Positions 1-7,130 of a stretch of 31,100 bases of DNA are shown in pieces (within the stretch, counting starts at the first letter, position 1; each line of letters starts with the position of its first letter). The notes under the pieces were generated by a model. That model was not told where the DNA came from, did not search any database, and saw only the letters and a program-made list of their open reading frames with translations. The DNA comes from Escherichia coli (lineage in GTDB: Bacteria; Pseudomonadota; Gammaproteobacteria; Enterobacterales; Enterobacteriaceae). The stretch lies in the NCBI RefSeq assembly GCF_003334765.1, contig NZ_QOWT01000040.1; one strand, given 5' to 3'. Made by a program: the position numbers and the translations under genes.

Positions 1-74
1 AAATCGGCTCAAACATGAAGAAATGAAATGACTGAGTCAGCCGAGAAGTATTTCCCCGCTTATTCGCACCTTCC
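1..74 (+). mobile_element. IS5 right-end fragment; the element body lies left of the window
   Basis: Bases 1-74 match, from memory, the last ~75 bp of IS5. The reverse complement of 59-74 is the terminal inverted repeat GGAAGGTGCGAATAAG. The next 4 bp, TTAG (75-78), fit the IS5 YTAR target/duplication site. Not verified by alignment. Confidence 0.85.
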
Positions 75-130
75 TTAGTCGCGCGCTGAATGGAATTTAC
101 GCCTCTTTGGAAACATCTGATTGGGGAATA

Positions 131-487
131 ATGAAGTTATTTGAGGATTTAGCATATAGAAATTATAAGTCAAGCGCATGGTCCGCTATGCTAAGAAATA
201 AATTAAGATTGAGAATGGACGATAAGCTTGATGAAAAGATAATTTCAATAATTAATGAGAAAGAGCTTGGTAAAAAGTTTTATAGAATTGACAGAGATCG
301 TTTGTTATCGTTAATGTTAGATTATAATATTGATATACCAATTAATCTTAATAATATAATTTACCTTTGTAATTATTTTTTCATAAAATCTACGGAGCTT
401 CAGGATATAGCCCCTGCTTTAATAATGAAAAAGCTTACAGATGCTGATGAAAAATTCAATAAAAATACTATTTTAGCATCTAAATAA
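131..487 (+). CDS. hypothetical protein, 118 aa from ATG 131 (TTG 107 gives the 126-aa ORF)
   Basis: Very AT-rich ORF with no motif I recognise. The same frame stays open leftwards across the IS5 junction to a stop at 29-31, so this may be the 3' part of a gene split by IS5. A hairpin follows the stop codon. Confidence 0.45.
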   Translation: MKLFEDLAYRNYKSSAWSAMLRNKLRLRMDDKLDEKIISIINEKELGKKFYRIDRDRLLSLMLDYNIDIPINLNNIIYLCNYFFIKSTELQDIAPALIMKKLTDADEKFNKNTILASK

Positions 488-504
488 TAACTATCTCCGG
501 CTAT

Positions 505-534
505 TAAGTAGGCCTTGTATTTTAGGCCTACTTA
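505..534. repeat. 11-bp inverted repeat hairpin after the small ORF; possible terminator without a U-tract
   Basis: TAAGTAGGCCT (505-515) and AGGCCTACTTA (524-534) are perfect reverse complements with an 8-nt loop. Neither strand has a clear T-run after the hairpin. Confidence 0.4.
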
Positions 535-866
535 AAAAGTTTCATTATGTGAAGTGATGATGATAGCAAATCTGATATCTTTATGGTTGGATGCGAGAAA
601 ATATTTTTATCCCGACACAACAACTGGTAATGATAGAAAATTTAAACCCAAAAATGCTACAGTAGCCTCAGCTCACAAACGGAGTATAAAGTGGCGGTTA
701 CTCTTTAGTGGGAATACTGTAGATAGTTGATAAACTGGGCTGGATTTTCTTTTCTAACCGAAGGGAAGAAAAGCAAGGGGAACCCAAAGAAACAAGCGCA
801 GCGGCTTCGTAGGGTTAGCCCTTGCTTCTTTTATAATTGGCATTATTCATTCAAGAACAATAGGAT

Positions 867-886
867 CTTCGCTTGTACAAGCGAAG
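867..886. repeat. perfect 20-bp palindrome CTTCGCTTGT|ACAAGCGAAG
   Basis: The reverse complement of 867-876 equals 877-886 exactly. It lies in an ORF-poor AT-rich stretch downstream of the ParB-like genes. Half-site fragments ACAAGCG (792-798) and CTTCG (805-809) occur about 70 bp upstream. Confidence 0.8.
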
Positions 887-1539
887 CTATAATAAAAAAT
901 CAATTAATTATTTTAAAAGTATTAAGCAAGAGCCTATTGACATTCGTAAAATAAAAGTTATTTTTAATGTATGCCATAAATAAAAAGTTTTATGTCATAT
1001 GTATCCTGCACTATGTGCAGTTAATGTGCCACTTGTCCCATATATGGGAATATTGGAAAGGTTACTTTGTTTTGAAGTAGCCTTTCGTCCTTCAATATTC
1101 ACGATTACTTATTGCTATTACCAAGTCCAGTCGAATCGAAGAACATCTTTTATCTGAAACGACTCCTAATACCAGGTTGAAGCCACAATATCTCTCGCAT
1201 AAGTAGACCAAAGAAAAATTATGATATTAACTATGTGATTTTTTTTAGTGTTAAGTTGAATAATTATATACTGGAGAGTTTTCTGTACACTACCAATTGC
1301 TGGTTCATCTGTTCTGCCGCTGATGTTTCTGACTAATCTCCCGGTGACACAGAACTGTCCCTCTCTACCAGCCTTTATTCGACTCAATGTCCGGCTGCTG
1401 ATACGCAGTTATCCCTTCGTATCAATGACTGACTCTTAAACGCAATGCTTTGGTTGCTGGCGTATCTGACAGCTTCTTCGGCGTGAAGGTCGTTGTGTAA
1501 GTATACTTCTTGGTTTATTTAGGCTATATAAAACCATGA

Positions 1540-2436
1540 CTATGACTGGCTGTTTTCAGTAAGAGTCTTATCATCCAAAGAATTTATTCTAGAAATTCTT
1601 TTTAACTCATTAAGATAATCAACCTCGTTTTCTAAGAACCAATGAAGAACTTTAGAGTTGCCAAGTAATTTATTAATATATGACTGGATTATAACGAATT
1701 TCAACATATCTGAACCATACTCGGTTTGAAGTTTTTTCGTTTCTTCCGAAGTTGTTGCCATTTCTTGTTCCAGACGAAGTATGGTTTTTTTTATGTCCTT
1801 TTTATAGGGAGTGTTTTTCCCTTTATTTACTATCATCGATGACGGTGTTGCATCCAAGATGCTCATTGCAAATTTTTTACTATAATTATCAAAATTAATC
1901 ATTGTACCGACTGCTTCAATTTGACGAATTGGCTTCATTTTCCTCAAAACGTCAAATGTAGCCTTAGGTATAGGTTTATCAGAAAGTTTCGCAATTACAC
2001 TTGGATCTATGCCGTTCATCACATTAGCTTTATCTTTTATGGCATCAACAGATATGCCCAAAGCAGCACTAAGTTTTTCAATTGATACTTTTGCCAGAGA
2101 CTTAATTATCATTCTATGTTCTTCAACTACATTTATATGATTCACTTGTTTGTTAGGAGTGAAAGCATCATCTATGCTCGAAAGTATACATGGAGCTTTT
2201 TCTATATCTAAGTCTTTTAAAGCCTCAACCCTTAAATGGCCATCAAGTATCTTAGTGACATCTTTATCTTTGTCATAGAATACTATTATTGGTTCAATAA
2301 TACCCAAGCTTTCGATAGAGGTAACTATTTGATGATATTTATGGCTTCGCTTTACGTTTTCTAATAATTCCTTAGATGGAATTAACTTATTAGTTTCCAG
2401 GTAAATAAAATTTTTGCCAAAACGTATCTGAATCAT
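1540..2436 (-). CDS. ParB/Srx N-terminal domain protein B (298 aa), third gene of the triad
   Basis: ParB-like motifs: SIESLGIIEPIIV (compare GLLQPIxV), ILDGHLRVEAL (a D-G-x-x-R patch at residues 65-69) and an HTH-like IEKLSAALGISVDAIKDKANVM. Its ATG shares ATGA (2433-2436) with the upstream stop. An AGAGGT Shine-Dalgarno sits 6 nt upstream. Confidence 0.8.
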   Translation of the reverse strand: MIQIRFGKNFIYLETNKLIPSKELLENVKRSHKYHQIVTSIESLGIIEPIIVFYDKDKDVTKILDGHLRVEALKDLDIEKAPCILSSIDDAFTPNKQVNHINVVEEHRMIIKSLAKVSIEKLSAALGISVDAIKDKANVMNGIDPSVIAKLSDKPIPKATFDVLRKMKPIRQIEAVGTMINFDNYSKKFAMSILDATPSSMIVNKGKNTPYKKDIKKTILRLEQEMATTSEETKKLQTEYGSDMLKFVIIQSYINKLLGNSKVLHWFLENEVDYLNELKRISRINSLDDKTLTENSQS

Positions 2437-3329
2437 TTTGATACCTCTTTGTTTACTGGGTTTAATATCTGAGATGGTAGTTCTGAAAGATTCTCTTGTT
2501 CAAGTATATTTTGAAAGCTTTTATTCATCATTATGATGTTAAAAATCTCATTTATTATTAGTAGATTGGTTTTTATAAATTTCGAGTTGTTATAAACAGA
2601 TTTATGTTCAGCGATACTATTTTCATAAAGCTCAATCAACTCCTCTGCAGTCATCCTTTTTGATGGTTTGTGATAATAAAATCCGGCTGCTTTTGCACCT
2701 TTATTCCCAACTGTTCTTTGATTTAGAATGTATTTTATCTTTATAATGTCCCGACTTTTTATTAATTTTTTATCATATGCTTCGGTAAGAATATCTTGTG
2801 CTTCCTCAGTTTCACATCTTGCAAATTGCACTGCGAGATACAGAGGCAAATTACCCCGTTCGACTGCTGAGAGAAGTTTATGCTCTCCCTTATCAAGAAG
2901 CATATTAATACTGCTCACCCAGTTCGATGAATATCCAGTAATCTCACTTATTTCGGAGTCTGAAAGTCCTCTGATTTTCATGTCTTTAATCACCTGTAAT
3001 AACTCATTAGAACGTGGTCTTCTCCTTGCAATGTTTTCAACTAAACTCATAACGTAAGCATCTTCTTCTGATACATCTCTTATAATTGCTGGAATAATAG
3101 TTTCACCTAATGCAACAAGAGCCTCTATTCTCCCTTGACCACAAATTAAAGCATATTTGAAATCGTCTTCATCAATAGCTCTTACGCTTATAGGCTTGCT
3201 TAATCCTCTTTTTTTTATGCTTTCCTTTATTTCTTCATGCACTACCTTATTTCTTGTTCGTGGGTTAAGAAATTTTATTTTTGCAATCTCAATTTGAATT
3301 ATTGGGAATTCATTTTTTTCAGGCAGCAT
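2433..3329 (-). CDS. ParB-like N-terminal + HTH domain protein A (298 aa), second gene of the triad
   Basis: Motifs: FLNPRTRN, GLSKPISVRAI and ICGQGRIEAL (a reduced GxxR arginine patch at residues 64-67). SLVENIARRRPRSNELLQVIKDMKIRGLSDSEISEITGYSSNWVSSINMLL parallels the ParB ENLQR...HTH segment. The C-terminal ~120 aa is unrecognised. A GAGGGA Shine-Dalgarno sits 5 nt before ATG 3327-3329. The start overlaps the recombinase stop by 11 nt. Confidence 0.8.
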   Translation of the reverse strand: MLPEKNEFPIIQIEIAKIKFLNPRTRNKVVHEEIKESIKKRGLSKPISVRAIDEDDFKYALICGQGRIEALVALGETIIPAIIRDVSEEDAYVMSLVENIARRRPRSNELLQVIKDMKIRGLSDSEISEITGYSSNWVSSINMLLDKGEHKLLSAVERGNLPLYLAVQFARCETEEAQDILTEAYDKKLIKSRDIIKIKYILNQRTVGNKGAKAAGFYYHKPSKRMTAEELIELYENSIAEHKSVYNNSKFIKTNLLIINEIFNIIMMNKSFQNILEQENLSELPSQILNPVNKEVSK

Positions 3330-4875
3330 ATAGTTCCCTCACTTTCATGCGAGTAATAATTTGTAGAAATTTATCAAGATTATCAAATCTATAGAGATCT
3401 AACCGAATGTTGTTTGTTTCCATCATACACATTTTACTATATTCGTTTTCAATCTTTGGTATGATATAAAAATCAAGAGGTGAAATATTTTGTGAATTCA
3501 TTCGTATAACAATTGTTATGTCTGCTTTCTGTGAGTTATCAAACCGGACTTTCCATCTAAGTTTACCTGATTTCATATGTATGCATTTAGTAACAAGGAC
3601 GGAAATTAAAAACTCATCATTGATGTAAAGCATTGGGTAATATTTATACTCGTCTATATGACAGTTACTTTTTAATATTTCGCCCTTAAAATCCTCAATT
3701 ATCTCTGAGTAAAATGATCTTAGTGCTTCATTTATTTGGAGATAGCTGTAATCATGTTCTGGCTTATAACCAATCAAAGTATATGCTCTTAAAAGACCAC
3801 CAAATCGGGTTCTATAAACAGAAGATGAAGGGCCTGTATCATCTTCATCAATGATAAAGCCTGATAGTTTTCCATTAGATTCTAATTTTTCTTTTAGCTT
3901 TTCTAATAGATCTTCATTAGTCAAATGAATGGATCGGAGCTGAATTATTTCTTGAGCTTTATTATATTTTTTCTTTGAAATAATTGGTTTATATGCCTTG
4001 TCACATCTAATCCATTCATGTTTGGGGTTTTTTACAAGCTTACTTTTTAGTTTAGATGAGGTTTTGTTATATATGTTGTTTCCAATATATTTTTCATTTG
4101 TCAAAATTTGATGTATTTTTGCACGAGTCCATGATGTTCCATTTTCTGCAGGTATGCTCTGTTCATTTAATCTCTCAGCAATAATGAATTCTGGGACGTT
4201 ACTATCTATAAAGAGATCATAGATTCTATTTACAATTTTTATTTCATTTTTTGGTCCCGGAATTAATATTACCCTATCTGTTTGAATACTCTTTCTTTTG
4301 CGGAAATTCAATATTTCTTTAGCTATGCCATTTTCGTCTACTAAAAGACGTCTCAGCCCATAACCAGCCATACCGCCTTGATGATAACCAAGCTTTATTA
4401 AATTTACTTGCCCTATAAATACCTTTTCAGATAGATTCCTGCTGTGATATGCAGCACTTGATCTTTTTATATTCAGTATAACAGAGGACTCTAAAGGGAA
4501 ATCTTTAGTGGGTATAGGTTCGGAACAATATATAAGATCTACACCATTTCTTTCAAATAGAAAGGAATAATATGCAGCTTCATCACTATTTTGAAAACGA
4601 CCAAAACGGCTCACATCATAAAATAATACAGCCTGTATATCTATTTTCTTTTGTTCTACATCGCTAAGTAACTGCTGCAAAGAATGCCTGCCTACGATAC
4701 TGACTCCGCTCTTACCTGCATCATCGTAGGTATAAGCGATTTCCATATTGTTCTTTTCAGCATAATCTTTGATATATTCAGACTGATTATGTAAAGAATA
4801 TTGCTGATGGTCGGTAGACATCCTCAAGTACTGTGCGACCCTAACTCTATGATTTTTTTCATTTCCGCTAGCCAT
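3319..4875 (-). CDS. large serine recombinase family protein, 518 aa from ATG 4875 (ORF opens at TTG 4881)
   Basis: Resolvase catalytic-domain motifs: YLRMSTDHQ (the nucleophile Ser context), DAGKSG and VSRFGR. Recombinase-domain motif: WTRAKIHQILTNEKYIGN. No CxxC pair occurs anywhere in the protein, so no zinc ribbon is apparent. A GAGG sits 8 nt before ATG 4873-4875. Confidence 0.85.
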   Translation of the reverse strand: MASGNEKNHRVRVAQYLRMSTDHQQYSLHNQSEYIKDYAEKNNMEIAYTYDDAGKSGVSIVGRHSLQQLLSDVEQKKIDIQAVLFYDVSRFGRFQNSDEAAYYSFLFERNGVDLIYCSEPIPTKDFPLESSVILNIKRSSAAYHSRNLSEKVFIGQVNLIKLGYHQGGMAGYGLRRLLVDENGIAKEILNFRKRKSIQTDRVILIPGPKNEIKIVNRIYDLFIDSNVPEFIIAERLNEQSIPAENGTSWTRAKIHQILTNEKYIGNNIYNKTSSKLKSKLVKNPKHEWIRCDKAYKPIISKKKYNKAQEIIQLRSIHLTNEDLLEKLKEKLESNGKLSGFIIDEDDTGPSSSVYRTRFGGLLRAYTLIGYKPEHDYSYLQINEALRSFYSEIIEDFKGEILKSNCHIDEYKYYPMLYINDEFLISVLVTKCIHMKSGKLRWKVRFDNSQKADITIVIRMNSQNISPLDFYIIPKIENEYSKMCMMETNNIRLDLYRFDNLDKFLQIITRMKVRELYAA

Positions 4876-5157
4876 GCACAAAACCTCATGGATGATTCAA
4901 TACAATGTAGAGGATAAAATTGATCAAATTTTAACCGAATTCAACTGTTTTATCATTGATTAGAGCGAATTTGGTAGTTCTTCGAGGTGTATGATAATCG
5001 AGAAGAGATGTGAATTATTTAGCTGATATGACCGACAGCTTTCGTTATGTGGCCTCAAGGTACCCATTTGTAAATGGCTATGCTTAGTCCACATAGGTTA
5101 ATGGTGTGATCATTAATTCTTCAAATAAATCAAGATAGTTAACCCATCATGGAAGAG

Positions 5158-6387
5158 TTATGCGGCAATAACTTTGTATTTTTGAGACGAAACATAGTCA
5201 CTCCACCATTGCATGAGAACCACACGTTCTGTGAGATACTCTGCACGATTGTAGGCTGCAATTATTTCATCTTTTTTCGAGTGGGCAAGGGCGGCTTCTA
5301 AGACATCAGTTCTAAACTTGCCACACTCCTCAGCCGCCGTTCTAGCGATTGATCGCATACCATGAGCTACAAGCTCACCTCCGAAGCCCATACGGATTAT
5401 AGCCGCATTAGCTGTTTGTTCATGCATGTGATTGAGTGGAGCTTTGATACTGGGAAAAACCCACTCTCTATGCCCGCTGATGGCTTTCATTGAATCCAAG
5501 ACTCGCAAAGATTCTTTGCTCAGTGGAACTTTGTGAGGCTTCTTCATTTTCATAAACTCCGCCGGGATGTTCCACATGCTGGTTTCTATATCAATATCTG
5601 ACCATCTTGTGCGAACAGCTTCACCAGGGCGAACCCATGTGAGAAGTTGCCACTCAATCAGTAGCCTTGTTTCTAAACGGATAGAAGCATTGTTTAGAGC
5701 AACCAGGAAGCGGGGGAGTTCGGAAGGGGGTAATGCTGGCATATTCTGTTTTTTTGGCTTGCTGAACCGTTGCCCCAGGTTGTCAGCCGGATTGAATTCT
5801 ATGAGTTCTTCTGTTGCTGCATAGCGGAAAATTTCATTCAGGCGGGATATGACGCGGCGAAGTGTTTCAAGGACACCTCGTTTTTCTATGGGGTCTAAAT
5901 GCTGTTTAAGCATTTTAGGGCGAATCTCCTTAATGGGGGTATCACCCAACGTTGGAAAGATATTTCTCTCTAGGCTTCGCCAGATGTCGTTAGCATGATC
6001 CTGGGAGATGCCTGACGTTTTGACTTTCTCATCAAGCCACTTCTTGGCTACTGCTTGAAATGTATGTTCCGTTGCATCCTTAAGGGCATTGGCTTTGTGG
6101 GTGTTATGAATTTGTGGGTCTATACCATTTGCAAGCAACGACAAGTACTCATCACGTAAAGCTCGTGCCTTCGCAAGTGTAAGGTGAGGATAGGTTCCTA
6201 AGCTCACCTTAGTTCGCTTTTTGGTCACAGGCACTGCATATCTGAAATACCAATTTTTCTTTCCTCCCTTCGCTAAGGGGGCGATTCGCAGGAGCAAACC
6301 ATCGCCGTCAAAAAGGTTAACCTCTTTCTCGGCAGGTTTGGTGCTTTTGATTTCAGTGTCAGTGAGCTTCTTAGCGATTTTTGCCAT
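5158..6387 (-). CDS. int: P4/IntA-family tyrosine integrase, 409 aa from ATG 6387
   Basis: The N-terminus MAKIAKKLTDTEIKSTKP...FDGDGLLLRI is typical of P4-type integrases. Catalytic-region motifs: TWVRPGEA, HGMRSIART, LAH and AAYNRAEY. It lies directly next to the 3' end of ssrA. The 457-aa ORF extension to 6531 is rejected because it runs through the ssrA terminator hairpin, and a GAGGG Shine-Dalgarno precedes ATG 6385-6387. Confidence 0.9.
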   Translation of the reverse strand: MAKIAKKLTDTEIKSTKPAEKEVNLFDGDGLLLRIAPLAKGGKKNWYFRYAVPVTKKRTKVSLGTYPHLTLAKARALRDEYLSLLANGIDPQIHNTHKANALKDATEHTFQAVAKKWLDEKVKTSGISQDHANDIWRSLERNIFPTLGDTPIKEIRPKMLKQHLDPIEKRGVLETLRRVISRLNEIFRYAATEELIEFNPADNLGQRFSKPKKQNMPALPPSELPRFLVALNNASIRLETRLLIEWQLLTWVRPGEAVRTRWSDIDIETSMWNIPAEFMKMKKPHKVPLSKESLRVLDSMKAISGHREWVFPSIKAPLNHMHEQTANAAIIRMGFGGELVAHGMRSIARTAAEECGKFRTDVLEAALAHSKKDEIIAAYNRAEYLTERVVLMQWWSDYVSSQKYKVIAA

Positions 6388-6483
6388 GTTTGGGACCCTC
6401 ATGTTTTGGACCCTTTGTGTTGGGTCCCAAAAAGGGTGCCATAACGAGTAGATTCTAGCAATTCTCGGTAGACTACTATAGAC

Positions 6484-6520
6484 GTAAAAAAGCCCGCAAG
6501 GCTGGTTCCATGCGGGCTTG
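6484..6520 (-). terminator. rho-independent terminator downstream of ssrA, on the island side
   Basis: 9-bp stem AAGCCCGCA (6490-6498) / TGCGGGCTT (6511-6519). On the minus strand the hairpin is followed by TTTTTT. Confidence 0.7.
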
Positions 6521-6553
6521 ATAGACTTCACTGAACTTCAATATATCAAAAAT

Positions 6554-6916
6554 TGGTGGAGCTGGCGGGAGTTGAACCCGCGTCCGAAATTCCTACATCC
6601 TCGGTACTACATGCTTAGTCAGTCTTTACATTCGCTTGCCAGCTGCGGACGGACACGCCACTAACAAACTAGCCTGATTAAGTTTTAACGCTTCAACCCC
6701 AGGCAGGGCTTCCACGCGATCTCTTTTGGGTTTGACCTCTCTTGATCCCCGTCCTAAGAGCGGAGGCTAGGGAGAGAGGGCTCTAAGCAGGTTATTAAGC
6801 TGCTAAAGCGTAGTTTTCGTCGTTTGCGACTATTTTTTGCGGCTTTTTACGAGGCCAACCGCCCCTCGGCATGCACCTTGGGTTTCGCAAATCCCGTCGA
6901 ATCCAGAATCAGCCCC
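6554..6916 (-). ncRNA. ssrA: tmRNA (SsrA), 363 nt
   Basis: The reverse complement reads GGGGCTGATTCTGGATTCGACGGGATTTGCG ... GGGTTCAACTCCCGCCAGCTCCACCA. The tag reading frame GCAAACGACGAAAACTACGCTTTAGCAGCTTAA (ANDENYALAA) is at 6795-6827. Confidence 0.97.
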
Positions 6917-6930
6917 AATGTGTAAAGGTA

Positions 6931-6960
6931 AGTATACCAGATTTATGAGCGCCATGACCA
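6931..6960 (-). promoter_or_regulatory. putative ssrA sigma70 promoter
   Basis: On the minus strand: TGGTCA (6955-6960), 18 nt, TATACT (6931-6936). The predicted start falls about 7 nt before the mature GGGGCTG 5' end, consistent with a short processed leader. Confidence 0.5.
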
Positions 6961-7130
6961 GCCTCAATGGCGTTATCGTTAAAGATTTAGCACCCATGTA
7001 GCCTGATTTTTATTCGATTAAGCAATGGGATGGCAACATTTGTGTCGGATGTGATAGCCAATAAGATGTTCATTCGCGCCGCCGGAGAGGGAGGCGCGGT
7101 GAGGAACTGGTCAATAATTGGAGTGCAGGT

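Follow-up and report, generated by a model that had tools for sequence, protein, structure and literature searches.

Introduction

The insertion of large DNA segments into genomes is carried out mainly with large serine recombinases as tools, and all understanding of their site recognition and one-way control comes from a zinc-ribbon/coiled-coil module. The phage-type enzymes, such as SPbeta SprA, Bxb1, phiC31, and A118/LI, combine this module with a resolvase-type Ser/Arg active site, a long alpha-E helix, and a recombinase domain. The coiled coil, which is embedded in the zinc-ribbon domain with its four zinc-binding cysteines, governs synapsis and directionality; integration by attP x attB is unidirectional, and a recombination directionality factor reverses it. 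In the Tn3/gamma-delta and Sin resolvases and the Hin/Gin invertases (Fis/HU), recombination is licensed when additional DNA-binding proteins or sites assemble a defined synaptic architecture. Here, we describe a recombinase (RefSeq WP_000146253) and the two ParB-like genes that follow it, ParB1 and ParB2, in a 31,100-nucleotide (nt) stretch of Escherichia coli chromosomal DNA (assembly GCF_003334765.1, contig NZ_QOWT01000040.1). This whole stretch is referred to below as the window.

The recombinase shares the active site, the long alpha-E helix, and the recombinase domain with the phage-type enzymes. Unlike them, its family has no zinc ribbon, four-cysteine site, or coiled coil, and carries a helix-turn-helix (HTH) unit and a domain with a predicted PD-(D/E)xK fold after residue ~315; it is also obligately linked to the two ParB-like genes and almost absent from bona fide phage genomes. 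Since the zinc-ribbon/coiled-coil feature is lacking, the protein is treated here as an architectural variant rather than a standard large serine recombinase. The family thus appears to handle the same problem differently, with an HTH of homing-endonuclease type, a restriction-endonuclease fold, and two dedicated ParB-like partners. Full-text literature searches returned no description of this architecture or of a recombinase-ParB-ParB module; the three genes apparently form a recombination module of mobile elements that has not been described before. The family is common, conserved, and of an unexpected structure, and it is directly relevant to the targeting and control of serine recombinases.

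Architecture of the Recombinase

The recombinase is encoded on the minus strand by an open reading frame (ORF) spanning 3319-4881. RefSeq places the start at an ATG at 4875, giving 518 amino acids (aa), while translation from an alternative TTG at 4881 would yield 520 aa; the RefSeq name, ‘recombinase family protein’, is generic. An earlier reading of the locus from its letters alone (the sequence-only reading) had located the gene correctly at 3319-4875 but assigned it no strand. That reading also took the N-terminal ~300 aa for a resolvase plus a recombinase domain, and the domain and fold searches agree. A Pfam scan found nothing significant beyond Resolvase and Recombinase, both within the first ~314 residues. 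The AlphaFold2 model is confident, with a predicted local distance difference test score (pLDDT) of 91.4 from a 70-sequence alignment. In Foldseek, it aligns with the SPbeta, Bxb1, and phiC31 integrases over only ~328 columns (E 5e-16 for SPbeta, with PDB sequence matches 9dxh and 3bvp), which correspond to the catalytic and recombinase domains. The 18 full-length relatives aligned, which are 31-59% identical, conserve the catalytic residues R18, S20, D87, R90, and R93 and all contain the Recombinase domain PF07508, while Y16, S20, T21, Q24, D87, R90, and R93 are invariant or nearly so in the family alignment. By these conserved residues, the gene is shown to encode a serine recombinase of the ‘large’ type with intact catalytic residues.

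Beyond these domains, the standard module could not be found by any of the approaches used. The zinc-ribbon profile Zn_ribbon_recom (PF13408) gave no match in the recombinase even at E<=1, and matched none of the 18 relatives. A cysteine census found no CxxC and no C-x(2-5)-[CH] pair in the protein, and no cysteine is invariant in the alignment of the relatives. The AlphaFold2 models contain no protruding antiparallel coiled coil; their sole long helix (residues 377-402) is predicted to lie inside a stretch that matches endonuclease folds. A cryptic zinc ribbon was therefore rejected: neither the E<=1 Pfam scan nor the cysteine census showed one, and the alignment of relatives and both structure models agree. 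The sequence-only reading had claimed that the zinc-ribbon/coiled-coil module is lacking and had listed five isolated cysteine contexts (LIYCSEP, IRCDKAY, SNCHIDE, TKCIHMK, and KMCMME). The list is exact, and the absence is borne out by profile search, census, alignment, and models alike.

According to the searches and models, the module is not merely missing but is replaced by two modules typical of homing endonucleases. When residues 313-518 were searched with phmmer against 1.84 billion cluster representatives, 1478 matches were obtained at E<=1e-3 and 580 at E<=1e-10, and these split into two classes. Residues 314-374 match 3-7 tandem units in Resolvase-plus-Recombinase proteins that hit the HNH_repeat family (PF18780) at 1e-12 to 1e-24. 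The E. coli recombinase itself scores 12.8 bits against PF18780, below the gathering cut-off of 26, and 10 of the 18 relatives match it at E<=0.1 (best 7e-5). This first replacement module is thus a single HNH_repeat-like HTH unit. It contains the motif GFIIDEDD...YKPEHDY, which the sequence-only reading noted as looking conserved but could not assign; the motif is the HTH unit homologous to HNH_repeat. The tandem-repeat proteins (such as P0122, P0146, P0158, and P0226) have the same two N-terminal domains and the same type of HTH in place of the zinc ribbon, but differ in carrying 3-7 repeats and no endonuclease-fold terminal domain. They appear to be likewise uncharacterised.

The last ~140 residues were found solely in recombinases of ~520 aa with this same architecture. 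Profile searches of this part against Pfam and PDB sequences gave noise only, and fold comparison alone was informative. A separate AlphaFold2 model of residues 313-518 (pLDDT 93.5, 89 sequences) matched I-Ssp6803I first in Foldseek (E 1.7e-5, 131 columns, 18% identity), followed by the SPARDA nuclease subunit, Eco15I-N, and PvuII. The last ~140 aa are therefore predicted to take a PD-(D/E)xK endonuclease-like fold closest to that of I-Ssp6803I, and the modelled domain has the core alpha/beta fold of the PD-(D/E)xK superfamily. The sequence-only reading had proposed structure prediction and a Foldseek comparison of the C-terminal part, and had named a cryptic zinc ribbon or a known DNA-binding domain as findings that would speak against it. 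No zinc ribbon emerged, yet a known type of DNA-binding C-terminal domain did in part.

Conserved across the family in this domain are N419, W441, D452 (within a literal ‘PD’), R458, N463, D468, P473, and R496. The spacing D452...D468-x-Y fits the PD...(D/E)xK register, which was set from secondary structure, and both aspartates are invariant or nearly so. The lysine position, two residues after D468, is Tyr, Phe, or Leu and not Lys across the family; R458 and R496 are invariant and could take its place. I-Ssp6803I (PDB 2ost) is a tetrameric PD-(D/E)xK homing endonuclease with no detectable sequence similarity to the C-terminal domain. It is a free-standing, intron-encoded enzyme, whereas the domain described here is attached to the C-terminal end of a recombinase and has Tyr, Phe, or Leu in place of the (D/E)xK lysine. 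Taken together, the recombinase probably carries its own, predicted replacement module for DNA recognition.

The ParB Partners and the Three-Gene Module

The two downstream genes encode ParB-like proteins (Table 1). ParB1 is fairly canonical and has the same ParB_N, HTH, and RepB-type C-terminus as the ParB/RepB/KorB/Noc CTPase clamps, with PDB sequence matches to Spo0J, ParB, Noc, and KorB and the invariant motifs NPRxR, CGQGRxEA, and ENxAR. ParB2 is a diverged paralogue barely alignable with ParB1. Its ParB_N score of 24.2 bits lies just below the cut-off, and it shows a sequence match to Noc and a conserved DGHLR motif. Unlike the known clamps, the pair has no ParA partner, comprises two distinct paralogues that are always found together, and has a degenerate GERRxR arginine-rich box in both members (GQGRxEA in ParB1 and DGHLR in ParB2).

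The three genes are apparently translationally coupled, with overlaps of 11 nt between the end of the recombinase ORF and ParB1 and of 4 nt between ParB1 and ParB2. The order recombinase-ParB1-ParB2 is conserved down to ~34% recombinase identity, usually with overlapping or abutting ORFs. It is found in Xenorhabdus (59% recombinase identity), in metagenomic relatives (34-43%), on Agrobacterium pAtC58, on Sphingobium conjugative plasmids, and on a 7.4-kb fecal contig. A scan of IMG/VR with a query alignment of 6 sequences yielded 53 diverged loci, and the order held in all 47 that had enough downstream sequence. The coupling of the recombinase to two ParB-like genes, which the sequence-only reading had noted, is thus confirmed by both the overlapping ORFs and the conserved gene order. 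One relative has a single RepB-like gene in place of the two, and a 773-aa recombinase-RepB fusion protein occurs in two independent metagenomes. In plasmid record NZ_CP110863.1 (L025 7545-9329), a 46%-identical recombinase is directly followed by a 594-aa ORF whose length and position alone suggest that ParB1 and ParB2 may be fused in it. This record is labelled a Lactiplantibacillus plantarum plasmid but shows the dense overlapping ORFs typical of DNA with a high guanine-plus-cytosine (GC) content, so the label may be mis-assigned.

Among E. coli-type alleles, the ratio of non-synonymous to synonymous substitution rates (dN/dS) ranges from 0.12 to 0.25 in the recombinase and from 0.05 to 0.31 across the ParB genes (ParB1 0.05-0.3, ParB2 0.06-0.3), with values of 0.04-0.30 for each of the four recombinase domains. 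The low ratio is kept even in E. coli ET791, where both neighbouring tyrosine integrases are pseudogenes. As all three genes are under purifying selection, the triad is a selected functional unit.

It might be argued that the adjacency is incidental, with an ordinary stand-alone integrase lying beside an unrelated pair of partition genes. ParB and RepB are common plasmid partition proteins, and RefSeq annotates the pair as such. This explanation is very improbable given that the same order and overlapping ORFs persist over 34-59% recombinase identity in every locus with enough sequence, that fusion proteins exist, and that the cassette includes no ParA partner. Moreover, true phage integrases match only residues 6-318 of the recombinase, and a full-length homologue occurs in just 1 of 50,697 phage records. 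No ParB-like gene was called on the contigs of the HNH-repeat-only relatives P0122 and P0146, the P0122 contigs ending just after the recombinase gene. On the sequences of these two relatives, the ParB link is specific to the endonuclease-fold subfamily.

Distribution

The triad is present in 657 of 5426 complete E. coli genomes (12%), always on the chromosome and essentially in single copy, and was found on no E. coli plasmid. The family as a whole occurs in Proteobacteria, on plasmids, and in metagenomes; 580 clusters at 50% identity match the C-terminal region at E<=1e-10. It is carried by 71 plasmid or chromid records of PLSDB, mostly from Alpha- and Betaproteobacteria. The context is therefore one of mobile elements, with the triad as cargo on integrative islands, conjugative plasmids, and chromids. 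Identity as a phage integrase was considered and ruled out by the near-absence of full-length homologues from the phage records. Matches of E. coli type in IMG/VR were likewise set aside, as they reflect calls of neighbouring prophages that over-extend into the island. For the same reason, the frequent position of the recombinase near ‘provirus’ ends was not used as evidence.

Proposed Mechanism

We consider there to be about an even chance that the triad is a ParB-assisted machine for conservative site-specific recombination of mobile elements, in which the three proteins act together. The recombinase would cut and rejoin DNA through Ser20, while the recombinase domain, the HTH unit, and the endonuclease-fold domain would read the flanks of the crossover site. 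In the I-Ssp6803I tetramer, DNA is bound by one pair of subunits and the other pair contributes quaternary contacts (PMC3384342). By analogy, the endonuclease-fold domain may take over from the coiled coil of phage integrases in holding two dimers together as a tetramer. The ParB1/ParB2 pair would bind a specific site nearby and recruit, license, or direct the reaction, much like the accessory proteins of resolvases and invertases, and the outcome would serve the carrying element through its resolution or stabilisation, or else through integration and excision. The licensing concept of the accessory-dependent serine recombinases is in this respect the same as the role suggested for ParB1 and ParB2. 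Those enzymes differ in being small, with a simple HTH, and in relying on host architectural proteins or extra subunits and not on dedicated, co-encoded ParB-family proteins. The strict synteny, the overlapping ORFs, and the fusions make it plausible that recognition of the attachment (att) site or control of directionality is delegated to the ParB-like proteins. If the ParB proteins do set the site or the direction, they would amount to separable targeting subunits.

Several observations weigh against recombination assisted by the ParB pair. Each genome carries one copy, so there is no sign of current mobility, and the junction between the recombinase and the island integrase showed no inversion or excision polymorphism in 645 of the 657 E. 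coli carriers. No convincing flanking direct or inverted repeats, conserved cassette ends, or shared palindromes that could serve as att or parS candidates were found beyond what is expected by chance in AT-rich DNA. A 14-bp palindrome inside the recombinase gene was discarded as its position is not conserved in other taxa. Clamp behaviour driven by cytidine triphosphate (CTP) is uncertain because the GERRxR box of ParB1 is reduced to GQGRxEA. No ParA/RepA ATPase was found in the cassette, whether in the window, in the Xenorhabdus locus, or in the annotated E. coli, Agrobacterium, and Sphingobium loci; downstream of the diverged loci, none appeared among the 10 most recurrent neighbour-gene clusters scanned. 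Finally, many of the neighbours are defence genes, which fit a role in genetic conflict equally well.

A bolder form of the proposal is that a ParB-family heteromer, possibly a nucleotide-gated DNA clamp, targets or licenses a recombinase with a DNA-binding or cleavage module of homing-endonuclease type, which would make the triad an unrecognised class of machine. We regard this as rather unlikely. It could take two versions: a programmable-looking integrase with separate subunits that choose the site, or a system for defence or exclusion in which invading DNA is broken or rearranged.

Genomic Setting and Cassette Ends

The coordinates of the triad and of the surrounding features are collected in Table 1. 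Positions 73-7000 of the window are 100% identical to several complete E. coli genomes, and core genes including smpB, recN, grpE, and ffh occupy the window from ~7000 onward. The left end of the window belongs to an island with a GC content of 33%, as compared to 50% in the core genome. On the minus strand, ssrA is followed by a P4-type tyrosine integrase, the recombinase, ParB1, ParB2, ~1 kb without long ORFs, and the 3' part of a gene with a RelA/SpoT domain.

Table 1. Features of the ssrA island and the recombinase-ParB-ParB triad in the window (CDS, coding sequence; tmRNA, transfer-messenger RNA).
Feature	Position	Strand	Basis
ssrA (tmRNA), island attachment site	6554..6916	-	ARAGORN; annotation
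P4-type tyrosine integrase of the ssrA island, outside the module	5158..6387	-	Pfam Arm-DNA-bind_3, Phage_int_M, Phage_integrase; RefSeq CDS
Cassette-specific upstream non-coding region	4876..5144	-	Integrase homologues of triad-less islands match only from ~5145; no ORF
Recombinase gene, 518 aa + stop	3319..4875	-	ORF; RefSeq CDS WP_000146253; Pfam Resolvase + Recombinase; dN/dS 0.12-0.25
Catalytic resolvase domain, residues ~14-152	4420..4836	-	Pfam PF00239 E 7.6e-22; PDB sequence matches to TP901-1 and TnpX catalytic domains
Recombinase domain, residues ~210-312	3940..4248	-	Pfam PF07508 E ~5.4e-22; SPbeta integrase residues 189-310 match; Foldseek to serine integrase structures
Helix-turn-helix unit, HNH_repeat-like, residues ~316-376; contains motif GFIIDEDD...YKPEHDY	3748..3930	-	
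Predicted C-terminal PD-(D/E)xK restriction-endonuclease-like domain, residues ~377-518	3322..3747	-	
ParB1, 298 aa, ParB_N + HTH + RepB-type C-terminus	2433..3329	-	Pfam ParB_N 1.6e-13 (50.9 bits), RepB 2.7e-07 (31.2 bits)
ParB2, 298 aa, diverged ParB_N + RepB C-terminal domain	1540..2436	-	Pfam RepB 5.1e-24 (85.8 bits), ParB_N 3.4e-05
Distal end of sequence common to different island backgrounds, ~50 bp past ParB2 stop	1489..1539	-	

Homology to loci L007, L008, and L026 begins at window positions 1489-1492, with different DNA beyond. As the shared sequence is bounded there and at ~5145, the module behaves as a cassette of ~3.65 kb immediately 3' of the integrase stop codon. It starts ~15 bp past that codon and contains only the three genes. 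The non-coding region upstream of the recombinase is presumed to hold the promoter and is a candidate location for recombination or ParB sites. A scan for promoters and terminators gave one weak promoter-like match at 4956-4928, and matches were no commoner than in shuffled sequence.

These boundaries raise the possibility that the cassette is itself mobile, the recombinase being an integrase or transposase that targets the 3' end or downstream region of P4-type integrase genes and the ParB proteins serving as accessory or directionality factors. The limits of the shared sequence, ~50 bp beyond ParB2 at one end and ~15 bp after the integrase stop at the other, would fit such an element, as would the absence of anything inside except the three genes and the reversed orientation relative to an integrase remnant in Xenorhabdus. 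The ParB2-side end also abuts a second, diverged integrase 3' fragment (codons ~364-457) in E. coli ET791, Enterobacter vonholyi, and Kluyvera, which is 66-71% identical at the protein level (L026 6693-6996; L007 11386-11670; L008 4337-4627). The bracketing of the triad by integrase 3' ends could date from the insertion of a cassette, or from tandem islands that later suffered a deletion. The latter, inherited once and then spread, explains the integrase fragment equally well. A self-mobile element further sits poorly with the single copy per genome and the absence from E. coli plasmids, with the lack of terminal repeats or conserved ends, and with the presence of a P4-type integrase near only 5 of the 53 diverged loci; no pair of empty and filled sites was found. 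We therefore hold self-mobility to be improbable.

Cargo Slot and Neighbouring Genes

The slot just downstream of the ssrA-island integrase is a variable cargo hotspot. In E. coli C, the whole ssrA island consists of the integrase, the triad, and IS1. In E. coli E41-1, which has an island of the same family, the slot after the integrase holds genes for a ThiF (E1-type) and an MPN (JAB-type) protein together with two unannotated genes (L039 1915-5817), a four-gene cargo that presumably resembles the Bil defence system.

This setting suggests another explanation, in which the triad is a conflict system for anti-phage or anti-plasmid defence, exclusion, or anti-defence. The ParB proteins would sense or load on foreign DNA, and the recombinase would be the effector, acting either by covalent double-strand breaks at its serine site or through the endonuclease-fold domain. 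The variable slot and its ThiF/MPN cargo in E41-1 are compatible with this, as are the toxin-like Fic-family genes that adjoin the triad in 9 diverged loci and on pAtC58. The persistence of an intact module under purifying selection while the flanking integrases decay, and the endonuclease fold with its conserved PD...D motif, point the same way. On the other hand, PADLOC (PADLOC-DB 2.0) returned no match for the recombinase or ParB1, and ParB2 gave only a weak match, between its ParB_N region and a model for a Type II methyltransferase. The canonical nuclease lysine is replaced, and the module is carried by E. coli C, a classically phage-permissive host. We know of no precedent for serine recombinases as defence effectors; if the triad is a conflict system, it would be the first to be built around such an enzyme. 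Regions of this kind also gather modules for stability, toxin-antitoxin function, and partition, so the neighbourhood evidence is not specific. On balance, a conflict role is a possibility worth keeping in mind but an unlikely one, and ParB-assisted recombination in the service of the carrying element is the reading we prefer.

Other neighbours vary with the host. In E. coli ET791, a His-Xaa-Ser (Hxs) radical S-adenosylmethionine (SAM) system and a TIGR04141 protein adjoin the triad (L026 1529-6552). HxsD and radical-SAM genes, after an unannotated 579-aa gene, also adjoin the gene for the recombinase-RepB fusion in a metagenome contig (L031 2651-7716). On Agrobacterium pAtC58, the triad is immediately preceded by an AbiEi/AbiEii pair (L024 5635-7483), and ORFs upstream of the triad in Xenorhabdus (L010 6871-7659) look by eye like remnants of such a pair. 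A superficially similar pair in Sphingobium, consisting of a DeoR-like gene and a 375-aa gene, gave no match to AbiEii.

Among the diverged IMG/VR loci (L070-L119), the Fic-family gene is accompanied by a 128-aa ORF in the 9 loci that carry it. In 9, an unrelated ORF of ~159 aa immediately precedes the recombinase. ParB2 is directly followed by a DUF3987 helicase-like gene in 6, and tail genes of gene transfer agent (GTA) type are found in 8. A fourth component, lacking in E. coli, could be encoded by the small upstream ORFs of these loci.

In the window itself, the ~1 kb downstream of ParB2 (488-1539) contains no long ORF and shows a GC-rich bump, reaching 48% at 1301-1500 inside the 33% GC island; an integrase-like tblastn match in this region was not significant (E 0.057). 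The first 72 positions of the window find no match in the genomes to which the sequence from position 73 onward is 100% identical; they correspond to a multicopy repeat present in 1781 E. coli genomes, at up to 42 places per genome and on both chromosomes and plasmids. This segment is probably the end of an insertion sequence that interrupts the gene with the RelA/SpoT domain, the 3' part of which occupies 73-487.

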